A stretch of DNA of 48,519 bases, taken from Nemertoderma westbladi. Its lineage: Eukaryota > Animalia > Xenacoelomorpha. This document shows, piece by piece, positions 4,333 through 47,430 of this stretch; positions within the stretch are counted from its first letter, which is position 1; each line of letters begins with the position of its first letter. The notes under the pieces were generated by a model. It saw only the letters and a list, made by a program, of their open reading frames with translations. It did no database searches and was not told where the DNA came from. The stretch spans positions 1-48,519 of the forward strand of contig JAUCBJ010008923.1 of assembly GCA_032718475.1 (NCBI GenBank), written 5' to 3'. The position numbers and the translations under genes were made by a program.

Positions 4333-5696
4333 ATATCCAGCGATTAGCACGCTAATAGCGGGATGTACCATCCTGCTAAGATCCCGCTATTTTTATAAGA
4401 TAATATCCGGATAATCGCCGTAAAAGTGGTCCCCGCTATAGCGGTGTTTTTAGCAGGATAATGATCTGGTTTTTAGCGGTTCCTTAGCGGCACTTTAGCG
4501 TGGATTTAGCGGCATTTGTAGCTGCCCAGGTTAAAAAAAATTCGCTTTGTCCAATCACATAGCGTTCCTTCAGTCCTTGTGCATACTCTGTGGATAAAGG
4601 AGGAGAGGGGGGGGGGGGGGGGGGTGGGCTGGAGTGGTTAGCCTACAATACCTACCCTATGCCTACACCTACGGCCCTACACCTACAATACTCTATACAA
4701 ACTGAGATGTAATCGTTTGAGTATAATAAGAGAATATATAATGCATTAAGACTTAGGAGTATCCTATATAACTTTAAGCGATCATCAAAAAATATTAATT
4801 AGATTATTCAAATCTATATATTTGATCTTATTTACAATCATATTAGATAATTCATAATTATGAATTTATTAAAAATAATAAATTGTAAACTGTTTCTAAT
4901 CGATTATTCGAAGACAAGAAACCATATATCTATCCAATAATTTCAGTTTTCTGCAAATTGAGGTAGTGTCGAGGGGTTGGGGTTGGTGGTTTATGTAAAT
5001 GCAGTTTAATTTTTGACAGTTTAATATTTTTTTTGTTCACTGCAAAAATGTACAAATGAAAATTTAAATACAGTACATATCTGCATATTGTCTGTACTAC
5101 TGTATAACAACTGTAGGTACTGTAACCTGAGATACTGTAGGTACTGTATAAATTTTTCCCTTTGATAATTACAAATTTTTTTCCTTTGATTGAGTTTAAA
5201 CTCCCCCCCCCCCCCCCCCCCCTCCCCCCACCACCACCAGGTATATCTCCTCCCATCATCATCTGAACAAACCGGTTCTTAGTGCATTATATTGAATGAG
5301 AGTTTATTAAATATAAATTAATATCGATTGTATCCATCCATGAATTTTTGTTTTGTTGTCATTAGAATATTTAAATTGTTGTTTTATCTTATTCTACTGT
5401 ATTATGTATCCGGGGCAATATCAAAAGTGTTATAATTGCGAAGTGCTTAATGTTGTTAGGATGTTGTGAATCATTTTAATTATCAAAAACGTCATTGGGA
5501 TGGCTTTAATTATGGTAAACTTGTGAAAGTTCATAAAAATTAAAACATCGTGCCATGATCGTTCATATTTTAGGTACTGTACTGTATTGTTGATATAAAT
5601 AAATGGACGTAAAACTGAATGAAAAGTGAACGATCATTATTGAATGTGTTGGTTCATATTTAATTACGTTCAACTAGTGATTAAAATTATTACATT
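4333..5696. mobile_element. Left part of a non-autonomous DNA element split by the BEL insertion
   Basis: Cluster of TTTAGCG/CACTTTAGCGT words at 4333-4530, inverted relative to ACGCTAAAGTG/GCTAAA words at 26730-27028; exact left terminus not clear. Confidence 0.5.
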
Positions 5697-5840
5697 TGAT
5701 GAATTATTTCACTATAAGATAGCATTTGTAGTTTAACTTTAACGTAAAAACTTTCGAAAATCCGACGCATTTTGATTAAGTTACAGTAATGTAATATTGC
5801 CTATTCATATTTGTACACATAAGGCCCCTAGTTACTCTCG

Positions 5841-5904
5841 TGGCGTAGTGGTCAGATGGTTAAGGCGTTGGTTACATTACAGATAGTTTACGTGTTCGAA
5901 TCCC
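5841..5904 (+). promoter_or_regulatory. tRNA-like Pol III internal promoter (A box + B box) in the LTR
   Basis: A box TGGCGTAGTGG (5841-5851) and B box GTTCGAATCC (5894-5903); both recognisable in all three LTRs. Confidence 0.6.
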
Positions 5905-5989
5905 GGTCGGGAAATTTGTATTTTGGGACCATTTATTTTCATTTGGTGCAAATTGGTGGACCAATGAGACGCGTACAACGTATCGAATT

Positions 5990-6250
5990 ATGAGCCAGGC
6001 CAATCATAGGGCATAGAATATCTTATTGCTCAAATGTGAGGCTATGGAAAATTCTGTTAGGATTCCGTGTCCCAGATTAGTGTAAGGGCCGGTTTGCATT
6101 GAACGATGAGCTGGGCCAATCATAGGGCATAGAGCATCTCATTGCTCAAATGTGAAGCTGTGGAAAATTCTGTTTGGTTTCCATGTACGATTTTAGTATA
6201 TAAGGATTGGTTTGCCTTCGGTTATCACCTTCACCTTCACCTTCACTTCT
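5990..6250 (+). promoter_or_regulatory. LTR U3 Pol II promoter: duplicated ~116-bp CCAAT-containing unit, TATA box, pyrimidine-rich initiator
   Basis: Two copies of ATGAGC.GGCCAATCATAGGGCATAG...GGAAAATTCTGTT (5990, 6106); TATATAAG at ~6197 followed ~30 nt later by TCACCTTCAC repeats. The TATA word is degenerate in copy 2. Confidence 0.6.
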
Positions 6251-6560
6251 ACTTGTTAACCTAGTACACCTTACTTATATTAGTTTATTTTGTTTCTTGT
6301 TGAAACTTTGGTAAATCTGCTTGATAATCTTTGCTCGAATCTAAACTGTAAATATACTGCAAACTCCTGAACATGTTTACTTTTGGTCCAACCTTGGGAC
6401 AGCCAAACATCGGGAAGATGGCAGCCTAGACAGTTAGGCCGTTAGCAACGCAGGAAAGGGATGTCCACAACACGCTAGCGCCCACATAAGTTTGACCGCA
6501 CACCCCCTTCGCCCTTCGAAATACTCCGACTTGCCATGCAGCGCCTGCTTTATGAGGAAG

Positions 6561-6740
6561 GTAAGACTTTGTTCGACGCCCTTGCCCGACGTAAGACCTA
6601 TAGATCAGGGTAAGCGTGATGCCGTCCTGGGACGCCGCAAAATTTAGGATCAAATAATTATATTCCAGGCAGAAACCCCCCCCCCCCCCCCCTTTTCTTG
6701 TCAGCCCTGCAAATCCCTGGGTTACCTGTGTACCTCACAG
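6561..6740 (+). other. Predicted small spliceosomal intron inside the LTR
   Basis: Donor AAG|GTAAGA at 6561 (alternatives at 6591 and 6610), poly-C/pyrimidine tract 6676-6700, acceptor TACCTCACAG|G at 6740; donor and acceptor conserved in all three LTRs. Confidence 0.5.
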
Positions 6741-8049
6741 GTGCGAGCAATTGCCGTTCGTCAGTATGCAAGTACATATTAGGTACGGACAGCATACGTT
6801 CCATAATTTAGTGATTTGTTAGTACTGACTGTTTGGTACCGGTTCGCTTTGTGAACATACATTAGTACCCCCCCCCCCCCCCCCCCCCTCCTACCTGGAG
6901 TTAGTTATTTGATCAGGCAAGGAGTATTTCTGCTACCGGCACACCGCTTGGCCTAGGGAGGTTTTATTAATATCCTACCGCGCCTTGCCACGTACTGATA
7001 GGTATTTGCTGCTAACTACCGCAGCAACAAAGTTCAAGAATCAAATTTGTATACCACATCAGCTAACGTACGGTAGCAATTAACCCCTATTTCTTATCTT
7101 ACAACCAGAATCTGGTATTTGTGCCGATCACGGGTGTAGTTACTAACGCCGTGGTTGCCCAGTTGAGTTGTGGATAGGAAGGAGAGAGCTTTGACGTCAT
7201 TTGTGAGTATAAAGTTCTACAAACGCGACGAGTTTATTTTAGTAGCTAGCGCACGGTATTATTTCAGTCACAGAAAATCACTAAAACCTAGTGAAATGAT
7301 ATACACCAAAATTGTTTTATTTGTAACACACCCACACACACGCGCCCTAAAACATATTTACCCTTAGAGAGAGTTCCTACTAGGTAGCGCACTTTAGATT
7401 TTAGGCAGAATTTATCTGTATTCGTAGAATTAGGATCTGATATTTAGTTACGGCAAGGGAGTATTTCATTATTTTGTTATTAAACTGTTGTTTTCAGCTC
7501 AGCAGTATTGTCACGTTAGGCACGACCCTTTTAGACTGATTTCGTACAGGGGGATCAGTTATTGTTACATTAGGCACGACCTTTTTTAGGCTGATTCAGA
7601 CAGGGAGATCAGTATTGTTACGCTAGGGCTGTAACCCACCTAGCTTGTATATAAACCATATAAATCACACCGCGGCAAGTTACGGTATTTTAGGGCTGTC
7701 AGCGATAGTTAGGATTCGCTGCGCGGGGATTGTTTTCCCGTGAGTTTGGTCTGTTACTGTAACTGTACATCTGCCATACCGGTTAGAGGACAGGTATCCT
7801 TTTGTCTAGTTTGTAGGCATTAGACCCGCTCACGTACATAGAATAGACACTATTGTATCTGTTTGTTTAGATATCCTGGACTGGGATTTGTTGTCAGATA
7901 CTGTACGAGCCCGTTTCATTACTAGAGTCTCATAGTAAGATACATCGTTACTAGGATCTGGTAAGCGGTATACTACTGGACATATTCTATAGCTTCTTAT
8001 TAGTAGATTTGTAGGCCGTAGGGTAGTCCCTACCGTAGGGGACACCACA

Positions 8050-8059
8050 GTGAGGTATA
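8050..8059 (+). promoter_or_regulatory. Non-tRNA primer-binding site candidate GTGAGGTATA
   Basis: Directly follows the LTR-terminal CA; lacks TGG; reverse complement of LTR-internal TATACCTCAC (24240-24249; 6729-6738 with one G.U pair). Confidence 0.6.
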
Positions 8060-8898
8060 TTTATTAAATATCTCGACCGGAAGTGCGTGCGCATTTTAAG
8101 GTATTAACTATTGTATTTAGCTATTGTAAGTAGGAGATATTTAAGATTTTAATAGTAGTAAAATTTGTAATTTGTAGAACGTCCCCTGCTTCAGTAGGCT
8201 TTTAGGGTAGCTAGTAGTTTCGTATTTAACATTTGACTAGCTAATAGTGAGTTTGTAGCAATTTGTTTTACACCGTGTGTGTGCGGTGTTACTTTTCGGT
8301 ACTTGAAAAGGTACATAGGGTTTAGAGACCAAATTGTATCGGTACCTAGGAAGAATTTTTGTAGAGTAGAAGTAAAACTCTCACCTTCGACTTTTCAGGA
8401 CTCAAGGACTCATTTCTGGACCGCTTTGAGGATTAGACCGCTTTTCGCAATGTTTGGGAGACACAAAATTCGTCCGCGCCGCCGAAAAACGGAATGACCC
8501 ACATCCGGTTTGTATTTGGGAATTTGTATGACTGGAAGATCAAAGGAGCGTAAGTTTTACGACTCGTGTCGTTTTAAACTTAGAAAGCACAGTAGTACTC
8601 AAAATTTGTGGGTTTCACTGTCTGATTAGTAGTGTTGTTGGTACATATTTTTCCCGTTAGACGTTGCTGTTTTGCCTATTATTTGTACTTGTTGATCTAC
8701 ATTTTGGTAACGTATACCGTTATCTCACTTATTCGTACAAATTTAGCCGGTAGGCTAGATTATTACTTATTTTATTATATATTTTGTTAGTTTATTTGTA
8801 CCGGTTAGGGTATATATATGATATATATATATCAAGGTAAGTTTGACATTTGGACATTTTGACATTTTATTACCCGTACTTGACGTATATAATAAGAC

Positions 8899-11800
8899 AT
8901 GAGTGACACACCACATTCGACGCGATACCCCCCTATCGACTATGACTCGTGCGACCCGGACAGATTGACAGTAGACGAACCGAGAAGGAGAACCCGAGAT
9001 TCCACCGATGTCACACCGTGTGCGTCGCCGGTACCCCGAACGGAAATACCGGAAGCCGCAGTGCGTGGCCACGGCAGAATCGAAGATTTCCTTACCGTCC
9101 CGCAGACTAGATCGTGGGAACCGGACATGGTAAGTTCGAATGGAAGCCAGGAGAACGTTATTAGAAGTATAGGAGGACACATGGCCCAGATTACTCAAAA
9201 CCTCGGAGAAGGTTTTTGCATTTTACGCGAGTTAACCACCGCGATGTTGAGATACGAGTTCTATACCTTACAGGTGAGGATAGAAAGTACGGTACATGCT
9301 TCCGTAGATGAACTTAAAGGTTTACACGAACTTGCAGAGTTGCGTGGCGACAACTTTACTCAGGTAAAGATAATAGATAAGTTAGTAAGTGCAAGAGAAA
9401 GTATTGTTCAGTTTAAGTCAGTAATAAGATTGGCTCAACAGGAGCAGTTTGACCAAATGCTAGGTGAGTCAGTTTCAGACGCGTTGTTACAACCCGAAGA
9501 GGAAGAAGAACTATACTGCCTGGACGGGAGGTTAGGGACGCTCACCAATTTTCTTCGTAGATGCGGCATACCGATCGAAGAACCGGAAGTCGAACCGCGA
9601 GGGACGACGGAAGTTCTCACTACGGAAGGCTTGCGAGCCTACCATATTCCACCCATGGATAGATCGTTCGTTAGCATGCGGAGTGACGCTGGCGACGTTA
9701 GTAGAACAGCATCTGTTATTACTCGACAACAACAGGAAGTTGCACGCCGACAACAAGTTGCCGAGGAAGAAGCGCAATGACAGATGGCACAGATCGCTAT
9801 CGAGGGAGAGAGACAACGTAGAGAAGACGAAGCAAGAATTGCGCAACTCAAAGCGCAAGCCGAATTTGAGGCTTCGGAGATGCGTAGATTGGAGGAAGAC
9901 TTAGCGCGAGAAGCAGCCGCGGCAGCAGCAACCGACGAGTTAGCACGACGGGTAGCAACTGACGAGTTAACACGAGTTGCAGCAGCTGACGAGTTAGCAC
10001 GGCAGAAGGCGGCCTCTGACGCACATGCTCAGTTGGAGGCACGGCAATTAAAATCATGTTTAGCCATACAGGAAGCAGAACTAGCGGCACAACAACAAGT
10101 AGCGGATCGACGCGAAAGGGAGATGCAGCTACAGTTCGAATTTAATTGTAGATCGCGTGAGGCAGCGAACGCGCAAGAGGACCTCAAACTCGACGCGAGA
10201 GATAGATCTATAAGATCCCGAGCCGGACATGACTTGTCTGCTCTGAATCGTTTCGAAGCTCGATATCGCGGAATTCAGAAGCGTATCGAGGAAGGAAGTG
10301 TGGGAGCGATAGATAGAGGAGAGGAGTTCGTCGAGGATTACTGTAAACGTTTTCCCCAAGTTATTCCTATGCTTAAACCCACGACTCCGATAAAACCGGT
10401 CTTTGTCACGAAACCTAAGGAAATAACGCCCGTGCGCTCGACGCAAGGTAACAGGTTTGTTGTGACAGAAATACCGCAACCTAGGGCAACTTCATCGCCA
10501 ATTTTAGCAGGTAACATAACTAGTCCACCTACAGTAAGTTGTAGTCTACTTGTAGGAAGGGAGGAACCTGCATTTATGTCAATTAAAAAGCAAAGTAAGC
10601 AGTTAAACCTGTGACGTGCTGTGCGAACCCAGTTATTTATAGACCGACTACGAAACCCGATTACTTTACTCAACCTTTGACACAATGTTAGACGCGACCT
10701 ACGACTTCGTGGAAGGCTTGCGAGCCTACCGAACAACGGAGGAGGACGGATGTGGGTAGTACCCACAGGATCGAACCATGTTTAACGAGACCTACGACTT
10801 TGTGGAAGGCTTGTGAGCCTACCGAACGACGGAGAACCGTAGATCCCAGAACGCAACGAATGCGACCAAGAATAATACACCGTACGCGAACCCGCCAACC
10901 ACCTTATCCGGACGACAGCGACTCATCTAGTGACTCGGAGTCGACAGAACGGGAAGTATTCCATACTGGAGCGGCAGCAGCGGCGACGGATTGCAAATGA
11001 GAGGAACGATCGACGAACCAATTCGTCAACAACCCACCACGAGAAACACCCATTCGGAAACCCACGTTGCGACCAGCGGAAACGATCCGCACCAAACAGT
11101 TCACCGAGATGACGGACCGACTAGCTCAACTCGAAGAACTACTTGAAGCGCAACCGTCGGACCGATCACGAACCAGCATGGAGTTGGAACAACCTAGACA
11201 ACATCAACCACCAAGGAGAGAACAGGAGACTAGACAGACTCCGACCCATCGAGAAGAAGATCCCGTTAATAATTCCTACCGACGAACAACGTGCGGAAGG
11301 GAACGACTAGACGACGCTACCGAACAGGGACGCGGACAGTTGGATTTGGTTAGCAAGATTGCGAAATTCGCGGCTAGACTCGGATTACCGGCACAGCAAC
11401 TGCCGAAGTTCTCTGGCAACGCGAAACACTGGCGTACACTGGTAGACTACATCGAGCCCCAGATCGCTAAGTGTGCTTTCACCTCGATGGAGAAGTTTAA
11501 TTACTTGCTCCAAGTCCTGTCTGGTGAGCCAAAACGATTAGCGGAAACCTTTATCGGTGTTCCAGATGCCTTTGAGTTGGCGTACGACCGTTTGTATTCG
11601 ATTTACGGCGGTGACGTGGCCATGGCTAAATCCATTATAGAAGACCTCTGCAGAGGAGGCAATATTTCGAAACCGATCGACCTTTTACGACTCGCGGACG
11701 AAATAAAGAACGCTATAGGGACTTTACGGTCCATAGGACAACTCGAATACGCTAACGCACCGACAGTTCTCATTAGGATAATCGGTCGACTTCACCATCG

Positions 11801-12341
11801 ACTCCGACGAGAATGGCGACGCATCGAGTACCGGCGTGAAGAAGCCGGCGGGCTTTTGAAACTCACCGACGTCTACCAACTGATTTCACGGGAGGCCGTG
11901 ATTGAGACTCGATCGAACTATACCGAACACCATATCGCGGCAGAAGGGATAGCTATTTCTGCACCGACTCGGACCAAACCATTTCTGACGAACGCAAAAG
12001 CCGTTACCTACGCCACCCCTACTGAGACTTCTAAAGTTCTGACGCCTATCGGCACCACACAGCCACAACAACAGTTGCCAGCGGACTTTGTGGGATGCTT
12101 GTACTGTAAGCAGAACGGCAGAAACTATAGCGGACATAAACTTTGTGGGTGTTGTGCTTTTAAGGAGTTAGGAATCGAAGAGCAGAGACTCCAGATTCGA
12201 TCGTTAGATTCCTGCTGGAGATGTATGAAGCCAGGACACGTCCGGAAGGATTGCCCGAGCGACGATACATGTCCTCAGTATGGACGTAACCACGACGCGT
12301 TACTCCACACAACGAGTCATACTCCGACCAAACGCTTTTGA
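8899..12341 (+). pseudogene. gag: BEL/Pao Gag region (coiled-coil N-terminus, DUF1759-like core, three Cys/His knuckles), disrupted
   Basis: LPKFSGNAKHW...EKFNYLLQVLSGEP...AYDRLYSIYG; CLYC..H..C, CWRCMKPGHVRKDC, CPQYGRNHDALLH; in-frame stops at 9778 and 10612 and a frameshift before 11067. Confidence 0.92.
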
Positions 12342-15300
12342 CGAGAGTATCCAGATAAAGCGGCTAGATGCGACGCGCTTTACAAGGAGCGTGCGCCGCG
12401 CGAGATTCATACTTTCTACGTGGATTGTATGGATCAATCGGGATCATCGGACGAGGACGAGGAGGAAGACGACACATTTTATGTGCATGCGGGTGAGGAA
12501 CAGCCATCGATAACGCTCCTCACACAGAACCAATTGAAAGGGTTTAGCGTGATTTCTATAAAGATTACCGGAACCCGAGGGAGCAAGCGTATATACGCTA
12601 TCTTAGACTCTGCGTCATCGCATAGTTATGTTGACGAACAAGTAGCCGACGTAGTTACGGACATGAGTCAAGGTAAGACTGCTCAGTATACTGTAAGCAG
12701 CATGCATGGTAAGAGAGTGATTCCTGTGACTAGAGTAAAACTAACCTTAGACACTCTTCTTTCCAAAGCGGAACACAGCAAGGACGAGCACTCATTACTT
12801 CCGGTAATAAATTTGACCTTTGCAGCTACGAAGGACTTTAGTAACTTGCTTGGCCCTGTGCCAGAGCAATCACCGGAAGATCGTAAGTATTTCCGACACC
12901 TTGGAATACCGGAATGTCCTGTCAATTATCGTTCAATTGCGATGTTAATTGGGACAGACCAGTTTAACTTACATCAGGTATGGGAGACACGCCCATCTGT
13001 TATTACAGCGGGCAACCCCTAAGCATGTAGAACTCCCATAGGTTGGTATACTAGAGCACCAATACGTTCACTAAAGGTAAGTGACCAGGAGGACGACGTT
13101 TTGAGTACGTGTAGTTTATTGACTAACACGATTGATAATTCTCCTTCACACTCCTGTGGTCCAATTGTACAGACGGCATTATGACAGACTTGCGTCGCTA
13201 ACGCAGACACCACCGATACTGACGTAACTGATCTGGACACGACCACACGGACCTCTATCTTACAACTACTTGCAGTAAACCAGGTTGTATTGACTACTGA
13301 AGACCAAAGGGTTGTTGCTGTGGATGACTCGATGCACGAGGGTTTTGGAAGGCTTGCGAGCCTACCGTAAAATCCGAAGGTCATTGACCCCACCCATCAG
13401 GCTTCGACACCGGTCGTTGATATTGGAAGGCTTGCGAGCCTACCGACAGATCAAGAGGTTGTCAAACCGCCGCACGACGATTCGACGCCGACTAGTGACA
13501 CTGGAAGGCTTGCGAGCCTACCAGACATATTGACACTAGCCACCGCAGTGGACGAAGACGTGGACGAGGACCATGGCGCAGTGCAAGCAGCGCTTGACTG
13601 ACTGCTGACTGAACGGACCATCAATGGTTGGACCGCTATGTCAGGACAGGAAAAACGGTCATTAAATATTATGAGAGATACCATTCACCAGACCGCGAAT
13701 GGCCACTACGAGGTTGGCATGTTGTGGCGCAATGGACAACCTAAGCTAGTTAACAATTACCCGCTTGCTTTGAGGCGACTCAAATCAATAAGGCAGCGAT
13801 TGTTGCGAGACGAGACGGCCCATATGCAATACAATGCACAACTTCAGACGTATCTCCAAAAGGGATACGCCATTAGGATGTTAAATCCCGAGGTAACCAC
13901 AGATTAGACATATTACCTGCCACATCATTTTGTTCGACACCCGGACAAACCTGGCAAGGTGCGTGTAGTCAACGACTGTGCCACGCTTTACCAAGGAATG
14001 TCTATGAACAGCGAACTGATGGACGGGCCGAATATTAATAACTACCTCATGGGAGTCCTAATGCGTTTTAGACAACGCAAAGTGGCTTTCACCTGTGACG
14101 TAGAGGCCATGTTTCACCAGGTTAAGGCTTTGGAGCGGGACAGGGACAGCTTGAGGTTTCTTTGGTATCTGGACGGAAATTTAGAACTTCCGCCAGAAAC
14201 TTACCAAATGCAGGTAAGAGTTTTCGGAGCCAGGGACAGCCCCAACTGCACCATGTACGCCTTAAAGCAGACCGCATTAGACAGACAAGACCAATTTGAC
14301 CCAGAAGTAGTTCGGACTGTGGAACGAGATTTCTACATGGATGATGGCCTCAAGAGTTGTGACGCCTTGGAGCGCGCTACAACTGTAGCCCACCAACTCC
14401 AGGATTGTCTCGCTGAGGGCGGATTTCACCTGACGAAGTTTGCTTCTAACGAACCCGAACTGGGGAACTCATTTGACCCGATGGATCGTAGTGGAGGTGA
14501 CCTAGACTTAGACCTAGAACCTCTACCGACGACCAAAGTATTAGGACTTAGTTGGGACCCTAACACCGACAATTTTAGGGTACGTGTAAGGTCCAACGAC
14601 CAGATTAGACATCTCACTAAGAGGACTTGCTTATCGACCATGAGTCGATTGTATGACCCATTGTGTTTCATTAGTCCAGTGATCCTACATGCTAGGATCA
14701 TACTCTGCAGCATTTGGCAAGCCGGTCTGGAATGGGACGATCCCATCCCAGAAAAGTTAGCTGAGCAATGGAAGGACTGAGAAGCCCAACTGACGTTCCT
14801 ACAAGACTATACCATACCAAGGGTATACTTTCCTTTGCAGACCACCTTTCCTGCCGATTTAGAGCTTCACAGCTTTAGTGACGCTAGCAAGGATGGATTG
14901 GGGGTTACATTATACCTTAGACGACAAGTGACATCGGACAGCTACGATGTATCTCTCGTTACTTCTAGGGCTAGAACAATGCCGTTGAAGTATATGACTG
15001 TACCTCGTGGAGAACTGCAAGCCGGGACGATATCCACCGATATTGTCAGTCTAGTTCAACGCGAGCTGTAGGCTAACTTGAAGGTCACATATTGGACGGA
15101 TGCGACGTTGGTACTTTGGTACATAAACAACGAAGCGTTTGAGTTCAAGACTTTCGTAGCCAACAGATGGGCTGAAATCTTGCTCAAACAAGATTGGCGT
15201 CACTGTCCAGGGAAGCTGAACCCAGCTGACATCGCGTCACGGGGAATACAACCGCTTGACTTTTGTAAACCGGACAATAAATCCTTTTGGTTTAGAGGAT

Positions 15301-17755
15301 CCGATTTCCTACAGCGACCATCAGACAAAGGCCACTGTTATTCGACGTGACAACCAATACCATACCAGAGGGTGCCGAGATAAAAATCGACAAGGTTGTC
15401 AAATCAAAAGCGAAAGCCAACGCCAAGGTCAAGAGGAAACAAGGACGGACGAAATCTGATGACCTGGACGCTAGACCTGACATTACGCCAGACGTCTCAC
15501 CAGAATCTCGACCAGACGCTTGTACGAATCTTTCACCGGATGTTCCGCGGGAGATTTCACCAGACGTTTCTCCTGATTGTTCACCAGATTACTCGCCAGA
15601 TTCACCAGAAGCGACACCAGATTGTTCTCCGGATTGTTTGCCAGATTGTTTTATGGAACTCTCGACAGATTGTCTACTGGACGTCTCACCAGACTTTCCA
15701 CCAGACATCTCGACAGACTGTCCACCAGATTTTAGACCAGACTTTAGACCAGACTTTCTGACAGAAATTACGCTAGACACCTTTTGGGACCGACGACAGG
15801 ACATTTCGCCGGATGTTCCGCGCTATGTCTCACTAGACGTCTCACCAGACTGTTCACCAGACGTTTCACCAGACTGTCTACTAGACACTCCATTAGAAGA
15901 CCCATTGGAGCGGACTTTTAGAAATTTACCAAATTTGACTTCTTTGGACGACAAAGGTGTGGCCACAGCGATCACACTTCGCTCAAAGAAAGTACTTGAC
16001 TTACCACATACAGGTAAATGTTTGACTAAGGTTAGGAAAATTACAGGCTCACAGGAACACACTAACACTGTAGAGTTGACACCGTTACTGCCAGTCGACT
16101 CACTAGGAGCAGACGGTAAAGGTAAGACCGTGGAGATTGACATACTTGGGGACTCAGACAACCCTACCGGAAGGCCCGTGGGCCTACCAAGTCCAGACAA
16201 GTATCCACACTACGACTATACCTTACCTGATGACGTCACTAACACTTACGTTGACCGGATAGTAAACCTAACTAGATCATGGACTGACGCGTGCCGCAAG
16301 TTAGCATGGCTCAAACGTTTGAGACAATATGCCAGAGGCAAACGCGACTTTCCTAGAAGACTTACCTTAGAGGAAGTTGACCATTGTGAAGTTGATATCA
16401 TTCTCCATTATCAATTGCGATATTTCGCACGAGAATTCACAGCGATCAAACAAGGTAAACAGATCAAGTCTTCACCGATTTTGAGTTGGAGTCCGATTAT
16501 TTATCGGGGCTTACTTTGTCACAAGTCCAGACTCCAGAACATCAACTTTGCACTTGACTTCAGGTATCCTATCATCATACCGCAACACCATGAGTTACAG
16601 CGCGCTATGATACTGGACGCACATGTACAACTCAAACACGTGGGTAGACATCACTGTTTGTCACATTTACGATCGAGGTTTGTACTGATTAGGCCTAGCA
16701 AGGCACTGAGTTTGGTAACACGGAACTGTATGATTTGTAAGAAGGTGCATGCGAGGATAGGACACCAAGAAATGAGTGAACTACCACTAGCAAGATTACA
16801 GGCATTTAGACCCCCTTTCACTGAGACAGGGATAGACTGTTTTGGACCTATAATCGCGAAACGCGGAAGGGTACAGGTAAAACGTTGGGGATTGATCTTC
16901 ACTTGCATGGCCTGCAGAGCTGTCCATATAGAGCGTGTGACAGATTTGACCACCAATGCCTTTATCCTAGCCTTACGGCAATTTATCGCTAGACGTGGAT
17001 TGGTCAAATCCATTTATTGCGACCAAGGGACAAACTTTGTGGGTGCACGGAACGAAATAACCAGAGCTTTAAAGAAATTGGACCAAAACCAGATTTCCGA
17101 GGAACTACGTCCTCACCGTATTGTTTGTAATTTTAATACTCCAGACAGTCCGTGGAGAGGCGGAGTTTGGGAAAGGCTGATTGGCTCAATCAAGACAGCC
17201 ATGGCAAAAGTAATCCCAACGCAACACATATTGACAGACGACCAACTGTCGACGTTACTAATAGAAATCGAAGCGACTTTGAACACTAGACCAATCGCTT
17301 TGAACCCAGACAATAACGACGTACAGTTTGCCTTGACACCAGCGCACCTGCTTATGCAGGCGCCAATGACATTGTTGCCCATTTCGGTACCCGTTAATAG
17401 CGACGGATACGGCAACAAGGCTTGGAAAATCACTCAACTATTAGCAAATAAATTCTGGGAAATATGGCAGAAATATTATTTGCCCTCTATTTCATCCAGA
17501 ACAAATTGGTATCATAATACCCGATGTTTGAGACGTGGTGACCACGTTTTATTGGCTGAAGACAATCTGAAAAGACGGTTTTGGCTGACCGGAGTCATTT
17601 TGACCACACACCCTACATCTGGTGTAATAAGGACAGTTACTGTACGGACTATCGACGGACGTACCGTAGATAGGCCTGTACAACGTCTCGTACTCCTAGA
17701 GGAGACTAGAAACGAGACAGGAGACTACAAATCTCCACCCAATATTAGTAAATAA
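12342..17755 (+). pseudogene. pol: BEL/Pao Pol region: aspartic protease, RT, RNase H, integrase, DUF5641-like C-terminus, disrupted
   Basis: AILDSAS protease; YLPHH, DVEAMFHQV, FYMDD (RT); FSDAS, PRGEL, WTDA, NPADIASRG (RNase H); HHCC, GIDCFGP, DQGT, GVWE (integrase); FWEIWQKYYL. Same frame as late Gag until a frameshift near 15340; several stops. Confidence 0.95.
15475..15885 (+). repeat. In-frame 12-bp minisatellite encoding (S/R)PD(C/V/F) repeats between RNase H and integrase
   Basis: Degenerate TCACCAGACTGT units; protein PDVSPDCSPDYSPD... Confidence 0.85.
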
Positions 17756-18477
17756 GATGTGGTACCCTTGATGGCCACCACATAGACTTACCATATTTTA
17801 GTCATTTTGTATTACTGTATGTGCATTTGTAATCCTCTTCACTGTAGATAGAGACAGCGGTGGAATTCCATGTCTTTATATGTGAACATGGAGGGTAGTA
17901 CCCTTATGTATCACATAGGAGCGGGATTGTGTGTGTACAGTAGGAATGGAATTCTACTTAGAACCCACAATTGAGACAATTTTTCAAAAATTATTAGACA
18001 AATCCATTCAGTTGGATTTAAATTTAAGAAAAATGATTCTCCAGTGAATACGAATTCTAGAATACAGCTAGATAAAAATTAAAATTGGGGAGGACAAGAG
18101 CGGATGGAAGGCTTGCAAGCCTACCGATAAATTTTTTTTGGAAAACAAAATCGGCCTTGTTCTACGTAGTCGTGTCTACTATTATTTAGACCAAATTAAT
18201 TCTCGACTGCATTATTTTCTTAGGAATGTAGTTTGGGAAATTAAAAGGTGAGTATTTTAGACTCGCGGCTAGTTTACCCGGAATTCGTTTTTTATCGGCA
18301 CAATTTTTTGGATTAGGAGCCAGTGCGAAATCACACAAACCCGAAGTCATTAGGCAAATGGGTTGGGGTTTTAGAGCAAAGTTGAGCCAAAAGCTGACAA
18401 ACTCTAAGTCACCTCACATCTAACCTCTATTTTGTGCTTCATCTAGTAGCAACGTAACGATATGTAACCATATATAT

Positions 18478-19167
18478 GTGTATACGATGGCGGAGAAGAT
18501 GAATAAGGAGTTACGTCAAGAGTTTACGCAGGAACAAGAGGCGCCATTCAATCGTTATGGAGCTAAAAACTTTAGTGTGTTTGGAGTGGAGAGTATGGCC
18601 AGAAGTACGGCCAAGCTCGCTAAATCCAAGGCGGACCCGAATGTTACGCGACAGCGGTTGGACGTGTATAACAAAAGAACGGAGGAGATACGCGCAGAGT
18701 TTAATGCGTTATATCCCTACGATGCATTATGCGATGCTAGTGACATTTGCGAGGATCCAGACACCGAGATGCGCCGATTGTATCATACGCTGCAATACTT
18801 GACGGTAGATGAACCCTTACCTGCAGCCAGGGATGAATTCGAAGGAATGTATCTTTATAGACACGCTCGTGGAGTGGATCCAGAGACAAAGGACGCGTTT
18901 TCCATATACATACTGTTTTACAAATGTGGAGCATGTATGCGTGAGCAAGATAACGCGATTCCTATGAGATTGAACTCGGAGAACCCCGAGCCAATATTAG
19001 CGCGATGCTCATACCACCAAAGTCTGCGTTACCAAGAAGGCGGATACCCTTTGACGAATCCGTACCATTTGTTTAAAATGAGTGGACCGAACGCGGGTGA
19101 GATCGTTATTAACGAACCCAGATTAGTCGAAACCAGACGTCTACAGCATGGTAGTGGACGAGTCTAA
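18478..19167 (+). CDS. BEL 3' accessory ORF A, unknown function (CxxC...CxxH possible Zn site)
   Basis: 229-aa open frame downstream of integrase; YKCGAC...RCSYH; overlaps the next ORF. Confidence 0.6.
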   Translation: MYTMAEKMNKELRQEFTQEQEAPFNRYGAKNFSVFGVESMARSTAKLAKSKADPNVTRQRLDVYNKRTEEIRAEFNALYPYDALCDASDICEDPDTEMRRLYHTLQYLTVDEPLPAARDEFEGMYLYRHARGVDPETKDAFSIYILFYKCGACMREQDNAIPMRLNSENPEPILARCSYHQSLRYQEGGYPLTNPYHLFKMSGPNAGEIVINEPRLVETRRLQHGSGRV

Positions 19168-20710
19168 TAAGTCGACACGAGAGAAACGGGAAGCTCTGAG
19201 CCTCTACAGGGCGTACAAGGCGTACGAGAAAGGCGAGATCGAGGAGTTTGGCGGAAGGCTCGCGAGCCTACCATTCTATTGGATATCCCACGATCAAACC
19301 AAACCTAAGGAGATGACACCCGAGCTCCTCGATAGTATCACCTTTGCTCAGCGTTTGTTGCAGAGACTACAGATACCTCATGTCGAGATGACGCGAGAAC
19401 CTCAGCCCCATTCTGCTGGAGCGATAGTACCGGTTGCGAGACCAACTAACTTTCCTATTAGTATACCGACCCGGAAGGAGACAACTTACGAGATTCCTAT
19501 AGTTGAACACCCGGAGATCATTTCGAACCTGGATTTCCTCCCATCGGTTACCTTCGGTGATGTGTTAGAGTCAGCCGAGTTACGTAAAACAATAGTTCAA
19601 AAAATCGTACGCAACGTGCCTCCACACATTACGGACTTTAAGGAAGTGGATCGAGTGGGGACGGATATCGCACCTTGCATCTTACGAGGATATCTGACTA
19701 GAACGATTCGATTATGGATCGGAGTTGGAACGTTTGAGACCGACACCAATATCGCGACCAATTGGACTGGTAAACCTATTAGTTTTGATGATGAAAAGTC
19801 AATTGGGAGAATTTGGAACCCTACCGACGATTTACTCGACGATTGGGATGTGACTAGCCGATCTCTAAAGGAGAATTGTTATATGTTTTACGACAATGAA
19901 GGAGGAAGCCATGAGCAAAGCCTCACTTCGAAAACTATACAGATTAGAGCACCAGACGGCGTGTTACATGTCTTCAGCCGACATAGGAGTGATAGAAAGA
20001 TGCCTATGCCGGAAGGAACGACGCAAAGACACGCGATGATAAAACGGATAGTTAAATCCATGGACCTGGCTTGTAGCATAGAAGCTAGGATGTTGCCAAA
20101 GGCCGTGCGAGACGTTGTGTTAGACAAGAGCATCGTCAAGATCGGATCCGGTGTACGGGATGACCTTATTAGCGATTTTGCGGGAATTGTCACGGAAGAG
20201 GATCAATTGCCTACGCCATACGTGGATACTAGACCATTGTTGCTTTGAGCTATTGAGCAAGGATATTTTAGGGAGTATAACACGCTAAAAACTGGGATGG
20301 GTTATATCTCATATCTAATGTTTAGTTGGGATTATAAGGAGAGTAAGAGGAGCAAGTACACGGACGTATACGGAGAGGGAGATACCCCCGGCGTAAACGA
20401 GTTCGAGTCACAGTTGAAGTGGCGAGGTTGCGTGTATTGGGCGATTAATTCACCTCCACGAATAATCTTGCAATACTATTTAGCGATAGAATCTTCGGTC
20501 AACGTTTGTTTCATCGCCGACGTAGTATCTAGAACCCTAAAGCGACATCCGTTATGTCTCGGTGAAGAACACACCTTTTACGATGGAGGAAGGACGCATA
20601 CTGATGTATTCCGACGATTTCTCCAACCCTTTTATAACACCGATGCGCACTGCAAAGTTTTCACGCGAGCGTTTTCAGGGACGTCTATCTCACTCACGCG
20701 GGAATCCTAG
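19148..20710 (+). pseudogene. BEL 3' accessory ORF B: WRN/EXD-like DEDDy 3'-5' exonuclease (one in-frame TGA at 20246)
   Basis: ExoI MFYDNEG...TIQI; ExoII LPKAVRDVVLDKSIVKIGSGVRDD; YVDTRPL...KTGMGYIS; ExoIII-like W...QYYLAIE. ORFs 19148 and 20297 are in the same frame. Confidence 0.75.
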
Positions 20711-20724
20711 TCGACAGACCATCG

Positions 20725-21441
20725 ATGTTAACGTTAGTACCGTATGACGGGGAACGCCACGCGGAATTCAAAGGCCCGGAAGGATCCTGGAAGGCTCGCG
20801 AGCCTACCGCCCATCACTACGATGTGGATCCGGCCGAGTTTGCGATGATAGACGAACCGTTGCAGCAACTCATAGAGATAGAGGAGAACCTTCCGAGGAA
20901 GACGCGAACTGAGATACGCGAGTTGGAGAAAAGCGATGCCATGGTTTGTGTACAACCTACGGAGACGAACATACCGACTGACCCGGATGATGAGAATTAT
21001 CACGTGGACGGTAGCGCTCGCCCCATCGGAGATCTCATCTATGAGCGAGTTTGGTACCCTGCCAACACTATTTGTGGCAGATGCGGGGCAACTGGCCACC
21101 ACGCAAAGAAATGCGGAGCGAAGCACATATCTCTACTGGACTTGGTATGTAACTGGTGCGGGGATCAACGTTCACACACTTTCTACACTTGCTGGCGTTT
21201 TGTGGCGCAGTGCACGTATTGTAATATTAAGGGCCATAGGGCATCCGAATGTCAACTTAAAGACGTCCTCTATGAGCACATGTCAGTTAAAATCGTTCGA
21301 CAGCTATTGGGAGGATCTAGCAGACGAGCATGTATCTACGCAGCGACGCCGTTTCCCTATGAGAGCACATTTGGGATTTTGGGCCGTAAACCCTCTCATA
21401 ATGTCGAAGGAAGGATACGTATCGGCTATGCCTCAGTATGA
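20725..21441 (+). CDS. BEL 3' accessory ORF C: triple CCHC zinc-knuckle protein
   Basis: CGRCGATGHHAKKC, CNWCGDQRSHTFYTC, CTYCNIKGHRASEC at 21073-21252. Confidence 0.8.
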   Translation: MLTLVPYDGERHAEFKGPEGSWKAREPTAHHYDVDPAEFAMIDEPLQQLIEIEENLPRKTRTEIRELEKSDAMVCVQPTETNIPTDPDDENYHVDGSARPIGDLIYERVWYPANTICGRCGATGHHAKKCGAKHISLLDLVCNWCGDQRSHTFYTCWRFVAQCTYCNIKGHRASECQLKDVLYEHMSVKIVRQLLGGSSRRACIYAATPFPYESTFGILGRKPSHNVEGRIRIGYASV

Positions 21442-22220
21442 TGAATTGTTGGAGGTGCTGGATATATTGCCTTTGGATAGCGGATTTATGGTTGTGCGGG
21501 ACTACTTTCTACAGGTACACCCCGACAACAAGAATACTTGGAACTTTCAAACTGTTGTGAACAAGATTACCGCCGGGGAATTCGACAAATTGCGAGTTGA
21601 ACAGCGCAATCGAGGAGCCTGGCATTCGATAGCTTGGGCATACCGGAGCGCATTTTATCACAAACGTGTAACCTCGTATATTCTAGACGAGACTGACGTT
21701 TTGTGTGAGACTGGCTTCAAGGCCACACCGTTAGCAGAAAGGACGCGTCACCCACAGGATGATTAGCAATTTCGTATACTCAAAGCCCAACAGGCCGGAC
21801 AAGAGATAAAGAAGGTAGTAAATGTTGCCGAGAGGATGACATCAAAGTCGCAAATCCGGATGACTCGGGGCACAGTTTCCCTTGCCAGAGAACCACGCGG
21901 AGGGACAGGATACGCTTTGCCGGAACCCTTTAGGATTCAAACAACGTCAGAGAGCGAGGTGTCAGCGGACGGAATAGTCCCACCATTTTGACTTCCTCCC
22001 AGCATTGTAGAGACTCGATCCGATGTTAAGTCGACGATTGGAATCGGACGAGGATTTAGAGGATTGAGCGCACGACGGATGTGCGAAACTCCCGTCGTCC
22101 CATTTCCTAGCGTTTTGGAACCACCGACAACTCGACGCCGAAGTCCAAGCCCAGTTCGACCTCGACCACCACCCAATCGCACTAGAGGATGTGGACGAGC
22201 CCGCTCATCGAAGGAATAGA
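21428..22220 (+). pseudogene. BEL 3' accessory ORF D (or frameshifted continuation of C), with Pro/Arg-rich tail
   Basis: MPQYDELLEVLD... frame reads on past stops at 21764 and ~21989 with coding-like composition. Confidence 0.4.
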
Positions 22221-22861: not shown

Positions 22862-22896
22862 TGAAAACAGTCTTACTTACTGTTTTCATGGAGCGG
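22862..22896 (+). promoter_or_regulatory. Stem-loop plus short purine-rich PPT-like tract before the 3' LTR
   Basis: TGAAAACAGT-7nt-ACTGTTTTCA perfect 10-bp stem, then TGGAGCGG abutting TGAT. Confidence 0.55.
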
Positions 22897-23022
22897 TGAT
22901 GAATTATTTCACTATAAGATAGCATTTGTAGTGTAACTTTAATGTAAAAACTTTCGAAAATCCGACGCATTTTGATTAAGTTACAGTAATGTAATATTGC
23001 CTATTCATATTTGTACACATAA

Positions 23023-23329
23023 AGTAAAGTAAAGTAAAGTAAAGTAAAAGTAAATTTTCTTCGGCCGCTAGGCCAGGGATTATGCACAAAGTCTGACGAC
23101 TTATTTCCAGTGCGGTCCCCCCAGAACTTTACTCCCCAGAGGAAACTCCAGTACTCATTTAGCTACCACTTAAGGATGCAAGGCAGAGATGCGCCCTGGC
23201 TGGTCCCTTTAAAGCATTCGTGCCGAAACGAAAACTGCCCTGGCCCATGTGAGGATCGAACCCACGACCTATGGGAGATGTGAATTCAATGCGACCACTA
23301 CACCAAGGTGGAACCTTAGTTACGCTCCC
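23023..23329 (-). mobile_element. tRNA-derived SINE with (TTTAC)n tail
   Basis: Absent from the other two LTRs; minus strand has A box TGGTGTAGTGG and B box GGTTCGATCC; (AAAGT)n on plus strand at 23021-23054; TAA duplicated at the flanks. Confidence 0.85.
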
Positions 23330-25006
23330 TAAGGCCCCTAGTTATTCTCGTGGCAGAGTGGTCAGATGGTTAAGGCGTTGGTTACATTACAGATAGGTTA
23401 CGTGTTCGAATCCCGGTCGGGAAATTTGTATTTTGGGGCCATTTATTTTCATTTGGTGCAGATTGGTGGACCAATGAGACGCGTACAATGTATCGAACGA
23501 TGAGCCAGGCCAATCATAGGGCATAGAATATCTTATTGCTCAAATGTGAGGCTATGGAAAATTCTGTTAGGATTCCGTGTCCCAGATTAGTGTAAGGGCC
23601 GGTTTGCATTGAACGATGAGCTGGGCCAATCATAGGGCATAGAGCATCTCATTGCTCAAATGTGAAGCTGTGGAAAATTCTGTTTGGTTTCCATGTACGA
23701 TTTTAGTATATAAGGGCTGGTTTGCCTTCGGTTATCACCTTCAACTTCACCTTCACTTCTACTTGTTAACCTAGTACACCTTACTTATATTAGTTTATTT
23801 TGTTTCTTGTTGAAACTTTGGTAAATCTGCTTGATAATCTTTGCTCGAATCTAAACTGTAAATATACTGCAAACTCCTGAACATGTTTACTTTTGGTCCA
23901 ACCTTGGGACAGCCAAACATCGGGAAGATGGCAGCCTAGACAGTTAGGCCGTCAGCAACGCAGAGAAGGGATGTCCACAACATGCTAGCGCCCACATAAG
24001 TTTGACTGCACACCCCCTTCGCCCTTTGAAATACTCCAACTTGCCATGCAGCGCCCGCTTTATGAGGAAGGTAAGACTTTGTTCGACGCCCTTGCCCGAC
24101 GTAAGACCTATAGATCAGGGTAAGCGTGATGCCGTCCTGGGACGCCGCAAAATTTAGGATCAAATAATTATATTCCAGGCAGAAACCCCCCCCCCCCCCC
24201 CCCTTTTCTTGTCAGCCCTGCAAATCCCTGGGTTACCTGTATACCTCACAGGTGCGAGCTATTGCCGTTCGTCAGTACGCAAGTACATATTAGGTACGGA
24301 CAGCATACGTTCCATAATTTAGTGATTTGTTAGTACTGACTGTTTGGTACCGGTTCGCTTTGTGAACATACATTAGTACCCCCCCCCCCCCCCCCCCCCT
24401 CCTACCTGGAGTTAGTTATTTGATCAGGCAAGGAGTATTTCTGCTACCGGCACACCGCTTGGCCTAGGGAGGTTTTATTAATATCCTACCGCGCCTTGCC
24501 ATGTACTGATAGGTATTTGCTGCTAACTACCGCAGCAACAAAGTTCTAGAATCAAATTTGTATACCAGATCAGCTAACGTACGGTAGCAATTAACCCCTA
24601 TTTCTTATCTTACAACCAGAATCTGGTATTTGTGCCGATCACGGGTGTAGTTACTAACACTGTGGTTGCCCGGTTGAGTTGTGGATAGGAAGGAGAGAGC
24701 TTTGACGTCATTTGTAAGTATAAAGTTCTACAAACGCGACTAGTTTATTTTAGTAGCTAGCGCACGGTATTATTTCAGTCAGAAAATCACTAAAACCTAG
24801 TAAAATGATATACACCAAAATTGTTTTATTTGTAACACACCCACACACACACGCCCTAAAACATATTTACCCTTAGAGTTCCTACTAGATAGCGCACTTT
24901 AGATTTTAGGCAGAATTTATCTGTATTCGTAGAATTAGGATCTGATATTTAGTTACGGCAACGGCAAGGGAGTATTTCATTATTTTGTTATTAAACTGTT
25001 GTTTTC

Positions 25007-25879
25007 TACCGTGGCTCATTGCGGCCACATTTGAATTTTTCTTTTTTTTTTTAAAAAAAAAAGTACACCTAATTATTCAGACAAATATTTAGCTGTACTT
25101 TTTTTTTCTTCAAAAAAAAAAAAAATACACCTAATTATTCAGACAAATATTTAGCTGTACTTTTTTTTTCTTCAAAAAAAAAAAAATACACCTAATTATT
25201 CTGACAAATAATTTGGAGTATTTCTTTTTTTCTTTCTAAAAAAAAATACTCCTAATTAATTAATATATGTTATTGGAGGGAATTTTAAACAGGTACCTGT
25301 GGATAGCATGACCGGTACCCGGTACGAACGGTAGGGTACTCTGCTCTGCTGCTACTACTGTACTACTGCTACTACAGTACTACACTTCAGCACTTAGGCA
25401 GCTTAGCCTAAGCACGTCAGAACTGCGAAATGGCGTCAGATTCTGACGATTTTGATACTGTTGGACCTAATCCTAGTAGAAAGAGGAAACTACTCGCTGA
25501 TGTAAGACGTGATTGTTATCTTCAAATAAACAAGCTATATCAAATCTGAAATCTGCCAGGTTGAACAGCCTGATGATGATGCTGATATGCATACCGCTAC
25601 CGGTAGGCCTAACCTTATTGGCATTCCGACGCGACCGACTTCTGCCGGGAATCGATGCCGGGATACTCCAAATTATTTGTCAGAATAATTAGATGTATTT
25701 TTTTTTAGATAAAAAAAAAAGAAATATATACTCCAAATTATTTGTCAGAATAATTAGGTGTATTTTATTTTTTTTGAAGAAAAAAAAAGTACAGCTAAAT
25801 ATTTGTCTGAATAATTAGGTGTACTTTTTTTTTTAGAAAAAAAAGAAAAATTCAAATGTGGCCGCAATCAGCCACGGTA
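25007..25879. mobile_element. MITE / internally deleted DNA transposon with long structured TIRs
   Basis: TACCGTGGCT(C/G)ATTGCGGCCACATTTGAATTTTTC TIRs, mirrored ~59-bp subterminal repeats, duplication GTTTTC (25001-25006, 25880-25885); empty site in the 5' LTR near 7490. Confidence 0.92.
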
Positions 25880-26502
25880 GTTTTCTGCTCAGCAGTATTG
25901 TTGCGTTAGGCACGACCCTTTTAGACTGATTTCGTACAGGGGGATCAGTTATTGTTACATTAGGCACGACCTTTTTTAGGCTGATTCAGATAGGGAGATC
26001 AGTATTGTTACGCTAGGGCTGTAACCCACCTAGCTCGTATATAATATAAACCATATAAATCACACCGCGGCAAGTTACGGTATTTTAGGACTGTCAGCGA
26101 TAGTTAGGATTCGCTGCGCGGGGATTGTTTTCCCGTGAGTTTGGTCTGTTACTGTAAATACTGTTACTGTTACTGCCATACCGGTTAGAGGACAGGTATC
26201 CTTTTGTCTAGTTCGTAGGCATTAGACCCGCTCACGTTCATAGAATAGACACCAGGCTCTGCTCCTCGCCAGTAGTAGTTTTGTGTATTGTATCTGTTTG
26301 TTTAGATATCCTGGACTGGGATTTGTTGTCAGATACTGTACGAGCCCGTTTCATTACTAGAGTCTCATAGTAAGATACATCGTTACTAGGATCTGGTAAG
26401 CGGTATACTACTGGACCCTACGGTTAGAGATATTCTATTGCTTCTTATTAGTAGATTTGTAGGCCGTAGGGTAGTCCCTACCGTAGGGGACACCACAACA
26501 TT

Positions 26503-37231: not shown

Positions 37232-37786
37232 TTTATTATTAACTAGAGACTTTTCTTTTTCAGTTTCACACTGACTTGTAAAGGTAACTTTTTAACACAA
37301 AGCGTGATTATTATAAAGTATTTGCATGTAAAGGTGACTTTATTGAGTAAATATTGGTGATAGTTTATATTTAATGTGAGCATGGGATTAGGTATAAAAC
37401 ATTCACATGTAAATGCATGAGTTTACACCACCATAATAAAACATTAGCCTGTAAAACCTACTTTATCAATGAAAATTAAAAACGTATTATGCACATCTTG
37501 GTTTAGACTTGATTTTATTATAAAGAATTCAGTTGTAAAAGCAACTTTATTTATGATATTAGTTTCCAATGTAACTGTTATTTATGATTGGTTGGTCTAA
37601 GTAGAAACTTGAAATATATATAAAGAGCTCAACTGATTCAATCGAGCTCATTCTGAAAATATTAAATTAATTAAAGTTTAGATATTATATTTTATTTGTG
37701 TTGAGTAGCTTATGAATTTTTTTTGATTATATATATATATAACAATATTCATATTAATTTTAAATTGTTTTTAGGATAATAAAGAG

Positions 37787-46532: not shown

Positions 46533-47430
46533 GTAGGAAGTATTATTTCCTTTAGTTTAGAATTGTTAGCTATTGAAAGTAGGAGATATTTAAAAACTAA
46601 GGTTAGTAAATTTAGTAATTTAGAACGTCCCCTGCTTCAGTAGGCTTTTAGGGTAGCTAGTACTTTCGTATTTAATCTTTGACTAGCTAACAGTTAGTTT
46701 GTAGCACTTTGTTTTACGCCGTGTGTGTGCGATGTTACTTTTCGGTACTTGAAAAGGTACATAGGGTTTAAAGACCAATTTGTATCGGTACCTAGGAAGA
46801 TTTTTCGTAAGCGTAGAAGTAAAACTCTCACCTTTGACCTTTTCAGGACTCAAGGACTCATTTCTGGACCGCTTCGAGGATTAGACCGCTTTTCGCAAAG
46901 TTTGGGAGACAATAAATTCGTCCGCGCCGCCGAAAAACGGAAAGACCCACGTCCGGTTTGTATTTGGGAATTTGTACGACTGGAAGATCAAAGGAACGTA
47001 AGTTTTACGACTCGCGTCGTTCAAACTTAAGAAAGCACAGTAGTACTCAAAATTTGTGGGTTTCACTGTCTATTAGTAGTGTTGTTGGTACATATTTTCC
47101 CTTTAGACGTTGCTGTTTGGCCTATTGTTTATACTTGTTGATCTACATTTTGTTAACGTATACCGTTATCTCACTTATTCGTACAAATTTAGCCGGTAGG
47201 CTAGATTACTACTTATTTTATTATATACCTTGTTAGTTTATTTGTACCGGTTAGGGTATATATATGATATATATATATATCAAGGTAAGTTTGACATTTG
47301 TACATTTCGACATTTTGACATTTCGACATTCTGACTTGTTGATTTATTTGTACCGGTTAGGTAAGTTTGACACTTCAACATTCAGACACTTTGACATTTT
47401 ATTACCCGTACTTGACGTATATAATAAGAC

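Follow-up and report, generated by a model that had tools for sequence, protein, structure and literature searches.

Candidate self-priming by an LTR segment in a BEL/Pao retrotransposon family of Nemertoderma westbladi

How does an LTR retrotransposon start its minus-strand DNA if its 5′ LTR is not followed by a TGG-type binding site for a host tRNA? This question is raised by 48,519 nt of the forward strand of Nemertoderma westbladi contig JAUCBJ010008923.1 (assembly GCA_032718475.1), hereafter the window, which contains a complete BEL/Pao element, copy 1 (5697-26497), as well as the 5′ portion of another, copy 2 (from 44252). BEL/Pao is, to our knowledge, the least studied LTR superfamily. 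A preliminary description of the window had proposed tRNA-independent priming by a variable segment encoded by the element. This proposal appears well supported by anatomy, covariation and relatives, as a variant of known self-priming and not as a new kind. The main parts of the two elements are as follows.

5692..5696, + strand, 5′ target-site duplication ACATT of copy 1 (5 bp)
5697..8049, + strand, copy 1 5′ LTR (2353 bp, TG...CA)
8896..17755, + strand, gag-pol of BEL/Pao type with Pfam domains, interrupted by in-frame stops
18424..21766, + strand, extra ORFs 3′ of the integrase, with a zinc knuckle as the sole assigned part
22890..22896, + strand, purine tract GGAGCGG adjoining the copy 1 3′ LTR
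22897..26497, + strand, copy 1 3′ LTR (TG...CA), with two insertions inside (~23023-23329 and ~25006-25880)
26498..26502, + strand, 3′ target-site duplication ACATT of copy 1
44252..46532, + strand, copy 2 5′ LTR (85.9% identity to copy 1), with a putative end

Copy 1 has the TG...CA termini, short target duplication and purine tract of BEL/Pao LTRs, and its two LTRs share 97.2% identity over 1683 nt. Its Pfam domains (DUF1759, zinc knuckle, RT, Peptidase_A17, integrase H2C2, and DUF5641) follow the BEL/Pao order, and the nearest proteins are BEL/Pao polyproteins of 39-49% identity with the same Pfam families, those named coming mostly from marine invertebrates. Acidic motifs which we take to be RNase H-like are visible at 14781-15347, and 12-nt tandem repeats at 15463-15909 encode an SPD-rich linker ahead of the integrase. 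Since the gag and pol frames carry two and eight in-frame stops, respectively, copy 1 is dead. The first insertion in its 3′ LTR (23023-23329) is an element of 307 nt whose repeat end is of the GTAAA type, and the second (25006-25880) is MITE-like, with inverted arms of 220 nt.

With regard to the ORFs at 18424-21766, no homologue was found, including among the 101 related loci described below. Their motifs presumably recall a DEDDy 3′-5′ exonuclease; this reading of 19127-20707 gained no support: neither Pfam nor PDB sequences gave a match, no longer homologues were found, the structural model had a pLDDT of 28, and the Atlas returned RdRP-like matches only (0.87-0.91, with low shared counts).

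Slots, sites and signals in the LTRs

The preliminary description had stated that copy 1 lacks a TGG-type site, and indeed no TGG occurs within 30 nt of the LTR end in either copy. Thus, the TGG site for a mature tRNA 3′ end that marks tRNA-primed elements is absent from the window, and what follows the 5′ LTR is a TGG-free stretch that can pair over 10 bp or more with the element's own LTR, as in elements of the Tf1/sushi type. The segments concerned are listed here.

6729..6738, + strand, slot A of the 5′ LTR, candidate primer, with a private G at 6730
24240..24249, + strand, slot A of the 3′ LTR, exact complement of 8050-8059
8050..8059, + strand, candidate primer-binding site A, immediately 3′ of the LTR-terminal CA
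45262..45271, + strand, slot B of copy 2, the majority type in public runs X1 and X3
46533..46542, + strand, candidate primer-binding site B, fully complementary to slot B

The coordinates proposed earlier hold: the reverse complement of 8050-8059 is identical to 24240-24249, pairing of this site with the 5′ LTR slot includes one G.U, and the slot and site of copy 2 (45262-45271 and 46533-46542) are likewise exact reverse complements. When G.U is allowed, all three pairings extend to 11 bp. The 3′ C of the primer would pair with the first base past the LTR, which upholds the claim that the polarity is the one required for priming. Outside slot and site, the window contains neither 10-mer and neither complement.

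The two copies represent two subfamilies. Their slots A and B are homologous; compared without gaps, they disagree at 5 of 10 positions, with every difference compensated in the sites. The compensation had been recognized correctly, but by eye the five differences can be explained by one insertion, one substitution and one deletion instead of five independent events. In dinucleotide shuffles of the LTR, a 10-mer complement at offset 0 arose in 7/2000 and 8/2000 cases (0.35-0.4% per copy), and at any offset from 0 to 5 in 37/2000 and 33/2000. Duplex energies are -14.8 and -14.6 kcal/mol for the cognate pairs and -2.8 and -6.9 kcal/mol for swapped slots and sites.

Several other elements of the LTR bear on how the slot could be used.

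6197..6203, + strand, candidate TATA box TATATAA downstream of three CCAAT boxes (5961, 6000, and 6116), putative promoter
6561..6704, + strand, candidate intron upstream of the slot, with GTAAG motifs resembling donors in both copies (6561 and 6610) and an acceptor-like polyC-TTGTCAG ending at 6704
6724..6742, + strand, hairpin around slot A, with a 7-bp stem and a 5-nt loop
7479..7484, + strand, ATTAAA, the sole canonical poly(A) signal in the copy 1 LTR, downstream of the slot and kept in copy 2 (45993)

The slot had been assigned to an LTR hairpin. The hairpin is present, but the slot is not a plain loop, as its ends sit in a stem of 6-8 bp that closes a loop of 5-7 nt, and the primer 3′ end is paired with a probability of 0.99-1.0. 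Slot and site each sit in a local hairpin. The minimum-energy fold of the leader does not include their duplex, and forcing it costs 18 and 26 kcal/mol, so that chaperoning by Gag must be assumed. Small hairpins also precede both LTR ends, with no conserved pairing to the primer flank, and inspection of relatives by eye found no conserved stem between the primer 3′ flank and the LTR end. A placement of the slot ~500 nt past the transcription start agrees with the TATATAA at 6197; however, this box is not kept in copy 2, and a second TATATAA common to both copies (7648/46160) lies downstream of the slot. Neither TATA candidate adjoins the slot, and the transcript start is a predicted position.

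No spliced form of the candidate intron at 6561-6704 was seen, nor any GT-AG joint indicative of intron loss in DNA contigs over 45075-45330, a type of record that cannot show absence. A primer formed at a splice junction within the window was also considered but gained no support: the best spliced matches, of 8 and 10 nt, were equalled by 56/60 and 11/60 shuffles, which leaves the contiguous match as the signal. Rfam gave two sub-threshold matches and no ribozyme on 5500-9000.

Other copies and the end of the LTR

Further copies of the family were examined as assembled contigs of four out of seven public runs (X1, X3, X4, and X5), none of them confirmed as RNA. Contig depth is a rough guide here, and differences near contig ends seem to be omitted, which may conceal rarer types. 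X1 and X3 contain the family in abundance. Position 6730 is A in 1852/1852 (X1), 5233/5262 (X3), and 68.4/68.4 (X4) depth units, and since A prevails in nearly all contigs, the G.U of the 5′ LTR is a private change. On the copy 2 slot, type B at 45267 reaches 29438 (X1) and 82436 (X3) depth units, and type A appears as a loose end in four (X1) and three (X3) contigs; the recurrence of both types in X1 and X3 supports self-priming. In X4, a contig of 68.4 units that spans the copy 1 slot, and not that of copy 2, exceeds the type B contig of 39.3 units. Slot and site are linked on one molecule in the two window copies only, as no contig contains both. In addition, a single X5 contig (depth 2.2) has a slot that is one insertion, one substitution and one deletion away from type B, possibly a third primer type, and shows no site.

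The copy 2 site had been placed after the CA at which LTR homology ends. The LTR concerned is the 5′ one, its partner lies beyond the window, and its end is thus deduced, but the contigs lend this placement indirect support. In three X1 contigs, site B, in register with the copy 1 leader, follows the CA of a third type of LTR end; one X5 contig ends 7 letters past 7981, which equals the remaining LTR tail of copy 2; and depth over the extra tail of copy 1 drops ~12-fold, 3.5-fold and 4-fold, and in X4 the loose ends at 7981 are mixed.

Two further segments resemble the sites.

8130..8139, + strand, GTAGGAGATA, a site-like leader motif that recurs at 46579, a possible relic or cryptic priming site
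26423..26432, + strand, degenerate site-like unit in the extra U5 tail of copy 1, aligning with the copy 2 site and leader, a possible former priming site

Units made of an LTR end and a site-like motif thus recur at 26423, 8050, 8130, 46533 and 46579, with a spacing of 46-80 nt, and the third LTR-end type of X1 resembles the unit ahead of 46579. The alignment of the extra U5 tail of copy 1 with the copy 2 site and leader suggests that the LTR end has moved.

Spliced and contiguous self-matches in relatives

An alignment of RT sequences yielded 101 relative loci, 79 from metagenomes and 22 from genome bins, and a direct repeat was found around the RT in 39 of them. Fifteen loci were first taken to have a defined LTR end; after removal of L064 (ambiguous pair) and L035 (assembly overlap without an LTR end), 13 remained. 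Four of the 13 have TGG sites and self-matches of only 4-6 nt, none reaching 10. Among the nine without TGG, six have a self-match of 10-12 nt to their own LTR by a strict test, a length reached by 0/206 swapped site/LTR pairs. The match is contiguous in L036 and requires removal of a GT-AG intron within the LTR in L002, L025, L027, L038 and L046. L008 (10 nt with a looser acceptor filter) and L082 (11 nt with one mismatch) fail the strict test, and L037 has neither TGG nor self-match. With the requirement relaxed to GT and AG alone, the best junctions in L008, L025, L027, L038, L046 and L082 all had textbook donors (GTAAGG, GTAAGG, GTACGT, GTAAGC, GTAAGT, and GTGAGT, respectively). The relatives therewith provide an independent, controlled test of the spliced primer.

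An open scan of 80 loci, in which ends were not fixed beforehand, adds spliced matches in L004, L012, L016, L021, L029, L035, L045, L056 and L080 and contiguous ones in L053 and L055. Its dinucleotide control (spliced matches: CA 25, AC 23, GA 19, TG 10, and CT 11) is uninformative because the offsets overlap the true site, and contiguous matches are at background; the counts therefore rest on the 13 pair-defined loci.

It appears from these comparisons that the primer of distant relatives is split by an intron and that the window family is likely an intron-less derivative. L036 has one LTR with the intron and another, 88% alike, that is intron-less and has a contiguous 11-nt match. This pair may be an assembly mix of subfamilies; read from its sequence, it is a case in which intron loss yields a contiguous slot like that of the window. 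Of 14 intron-type loci, 12 have a canonical poly(A) signal 10-93 nt beyond the primer, so the overlap needed for strand transfer remains. The gap between LTR and site is 3-4 nt where GAA or TTAA precedes the TG of the 3′ LTR (5/5 loci) and 0 nt where GG or CCA does (6/6 loci and the window). In these 11 relatives and the window, the gap hence tracks the kind of purine tract/LTR junction, a pattern that would follow if the cDNA end were set by the site. The 14 intron-type sites comprise 11 distinct 10-mers; 12 of the 14 sites begin with GT, and none fits the donor patterns (GTRAG or GTA.GT). The primer end is paired at 0.27-0.95 in 13 spliced loci and at 0.99, 0.80 and 0.55 in the three contiguous relatives; no conserved closing stem around the primer was found in the spliced relatives.

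In a quick RT tree of 95/102 rows, which includes no named BEL/Pao reference elements, the window RT falls together with all 19 self-matching loci and away from the six tRNA-type loci (SH-aLRT 82-92, on a long branch), in no starred clade. A degenerate pattern of the slot flanks gave 0 stretches in metagenome contigs, and the viral contigs scanned contained no relative. In L053 (~208-242), the end of the contiguous primer sits in a stem of the two arms of the window hairpin in mirror order. The loci L080-L101 are animal BEL/Pao elements in 22 contigs of prokaryotic genome bins, a case of host contamination of the bins.

Priming by the element's own RNA and its alternatives

That the element primes minus-strand DNA with its own RNA in some form is very probable, whether as in the model preferred here or as in the first two alternatives weighed below. 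The best model resembles Tf1, and we consider it likely on the sequence evidence that the primer is the LTR slot, cut from the element's own RNA, and not a tRNA. Briefly, transcription would start upstream of the slot, and the Gag nucleocapsid would open the slot hairpin and anneal the slot to the site ~1.3 kb downstream. RNase H would cut at the end of the duplex, right after the AC of the slot, as in Tf1, with loss of the upstream leader. RT would then copy U5 and R back to the cut and jump to the 3′ R, the transfer falling in the stretch of R between the slot and the ATTAAA at 7479. Plus-strand synthesis would copy the attached primer, and each new site would be rewritten from the slot; with such rewriting in every cycle, slot and site would drift together without mismatched intermediates.

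An internal primer poses a problem in this scheme, as the copy in the 3′ R could also anneal and be cut. An intron within the primer would solve it, since only the spliced 5′ copy could prime, and in the distant relatives the primer is predicted to be an exon-exon junction from a spliced LTR intron. The window family would likely be an intron-less descendant, in which the hairpin at the primer 3′ end hides the primer and may do the same job as the intron. A wider reading, which we offer tentatively and hold to be somewhat less probable than its opposite, is that a large marine branch of BEL/Pao makes its primer by intron splicing within the LTR, which restricts priming to the spliced 5′ copy, and that the window family swapped the lost intron for a hairpin gate. 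Recopied into the site every cycle, the primer would drift freely; with drift, priming would hop to look-alikes in the leader and the LTR end would move, leaving relics at 26423, 8130 and 46579.

The alternatives differ in where the primer comes from. It is unlikely that the element self-primes with a slot located in U3, under a promoter at the TATATAA at 7648, or with a second RNA, such that the primer is taken from the 3′ LTR copy or acts in trans. The TATATAA at 7648/46160 is indeed the one present in both copies, in contrast to that at 6197, and it is the 3′ LTR slot of copy 1 that matches perfectly. However, the mismatch of the 5′ slot is a private change, neither LTR has AATAAA or ATTAAA past 7648, so that no R region is evident there, the CCAAT boxes and donor sites suit an upstream promoter, and the primer of relatives lies upstream of the poly(A) signal. 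Somewhat less probable again is a primer 3′ end made without any RNase H cut by the spliceosome, acting at a CAG|GT two bases past the slot and leaving a free exon end or lariat tail that is trimmed by 2 bases, perhaps by an exonuclease of the element. CAG|GT does follow the slot in all three LTRs, donor-like sites lie upstream, and the motifs of the ORFs past the integrase are those that we assume to recall a 3′-5′ exonuclease, but the exonuclease idea gained no support, the hairpin stem accounts for the AGGT, the bases past the primer are not AG in relatives, and DNA contigs of 45075-45330 contain no GT-AG joint.

The pairing might also be a structural or regulatory long-range helix, for example one masking a donor-like site past the LTR, with priming left to some host RNA. 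Both window sites begin with a donor-like GT(A/G) after CA and form local hairpins, and a hairpin of unexplained role is described at the same place in fungal GalEa (PMC5445492). We regard this as very unlikely, given that none of the 14 intron-type sites matches the donor patterns, that no single host RNA could fit 11 distinct 10-mers, that the pairing starts where DNA synthesis must start, and that its offset tracks the purine-tract side. Priming by a host tRNA fragment, with the self-complement arising by chance or as a by-product of LTR-end rearrangement, is the least credible account. Copia lineages primed by half-tRNAs, with no TGG, are known (PMC6317226, PMC10886601), and the copy 2 site resembles part of the copy 1 U5 tail; yet shuffles produce such a match at 0.35-0.4% per copy, both matches fall in one homologous slot, and none of the 206 swapped controls in relatives reached 10 nt. 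As a separate observation, a tRNA/SINE-like stretch with what we take to be A- and B-box-like motifs occurs in U3 of all three LTRs (~5838-5915, 23348-23425, and 44395-44465). ARAGORN called no tRNA (0 genes), including in this stretch, which is reminiscent of Helenus elements (PMC10886601).

Self-priming by the LTR slot, the preferred reading, has well-described counterparts. Self-priming has been described for Tf1/sushi elements (PMC4600332, PMC6317226): Tf1 RNA anneals to the site by its first 11 bases and is cut by RNase H behind them (PMC7175516), and about half of the cDNA retains a DNA copy of the site (PMC11042837). Tf1/Tf2 of Schizosaccharomyces pombe, Tj1 and other Tf1/sushi members of Ty3/gypsy resemble the window element in having no tRNA site and a site of 10-11 nt complementary to their own LTR RNA, and Tf1 resembles the proposed model in the RNase H cut after the duplex and the copying of the primer into the cDNA end (PMC7175516, PMC4600332, PMC11042837). 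In contrast to these Ty3/gypsy chromoviruses, the window element has BEL/Pao domains and no Ty3/gypsy ancestry; judged by its sequence, it is Tf1-like in anatomy but stands outside the Tf1/sushi group. The same criterion, 10 or more complementary bp that begin within 0-5 nt of the LTR, has served to predict self-priming in the plant lineages Tcn1 (gypsy) and TAR/Houba/Osr-1 (copia), for 83% and 89% of elements, respectively (PMC6317226). These belong to other superfamilies, and the available text of that study mentions neither where in the LTR the primer lies nor an intron-split primer (PMC6317226). Fungal GalEa, with a conserved hairpin site, and Dictyostelium Skipper are also LTR elements without a tRNA site whose priming route is unexplained, but unlike the window element, they are reported, in the text available, to have no complement in the LTR (PMC5445492, PMC5006619).

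Within BEL/Pao, the tRNA-primed L022, L030, L090, L094, L096 and L098 share the domain set, TG...CA ends and purine tract of the window element but have TGG, lack the self-match, and fall outside its RT group. L002, L025, L027, L038 and L046 belong to the same superfamily and, in the quick tree, fall in the same RT group, with a primer mostly ending in AC, a site beginning with GT and a poly(A) signal past the primer, whereas the window primer is contiguous without an intron and the window LTR is 3-6 times longer. The feature is real, and self-priming as such is known from Tf1/sushi, Tcn1 and TAR; no report of it for BEL/Pao was found. More precisely, no mention of self-priming or intron-split primers in BEL/Pao was found in the accessible parts of the full-text literature (including PMC3118150, PMC554778, PMC6238403, PMC8220671, and PMC13524379), from which most subscription papers, Repbase reports and bioRxiv supplements are absent, and the accessible parts of the BEL/Pao surveys PMC3118150, PMC554778 and PMC6238403 do not discuss priming. 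The contribution of the window is a high-copy family with long, intron-less LTRs, which has two exchangeable primer/site pairs and shows signs of LTR-end movement.

If the preferred reading is true, self-priming arose in a third superfamily with a primer that is internal and not 5′-terminal, and the primer of the relatives exists only after host splicing. Such elements would presumably escape silencing directed at tRNA-binding sites. The two natural primer/site pairs are a ready specificity control, and the self-match rule lets annotators find LTR ends in BEL/Pao elements listed without a primer site.

The window also holds, at 27958-31369 and 36155-41806, a DDE transposase fragment, a LINE ORF2 of 963 aa, and three ORFs (358, 838, and 504 aa) without a Pfam match, the 838-aa one of which presumably recalls a fragment of a Maverick/Polinton-type DNA polymerase B.
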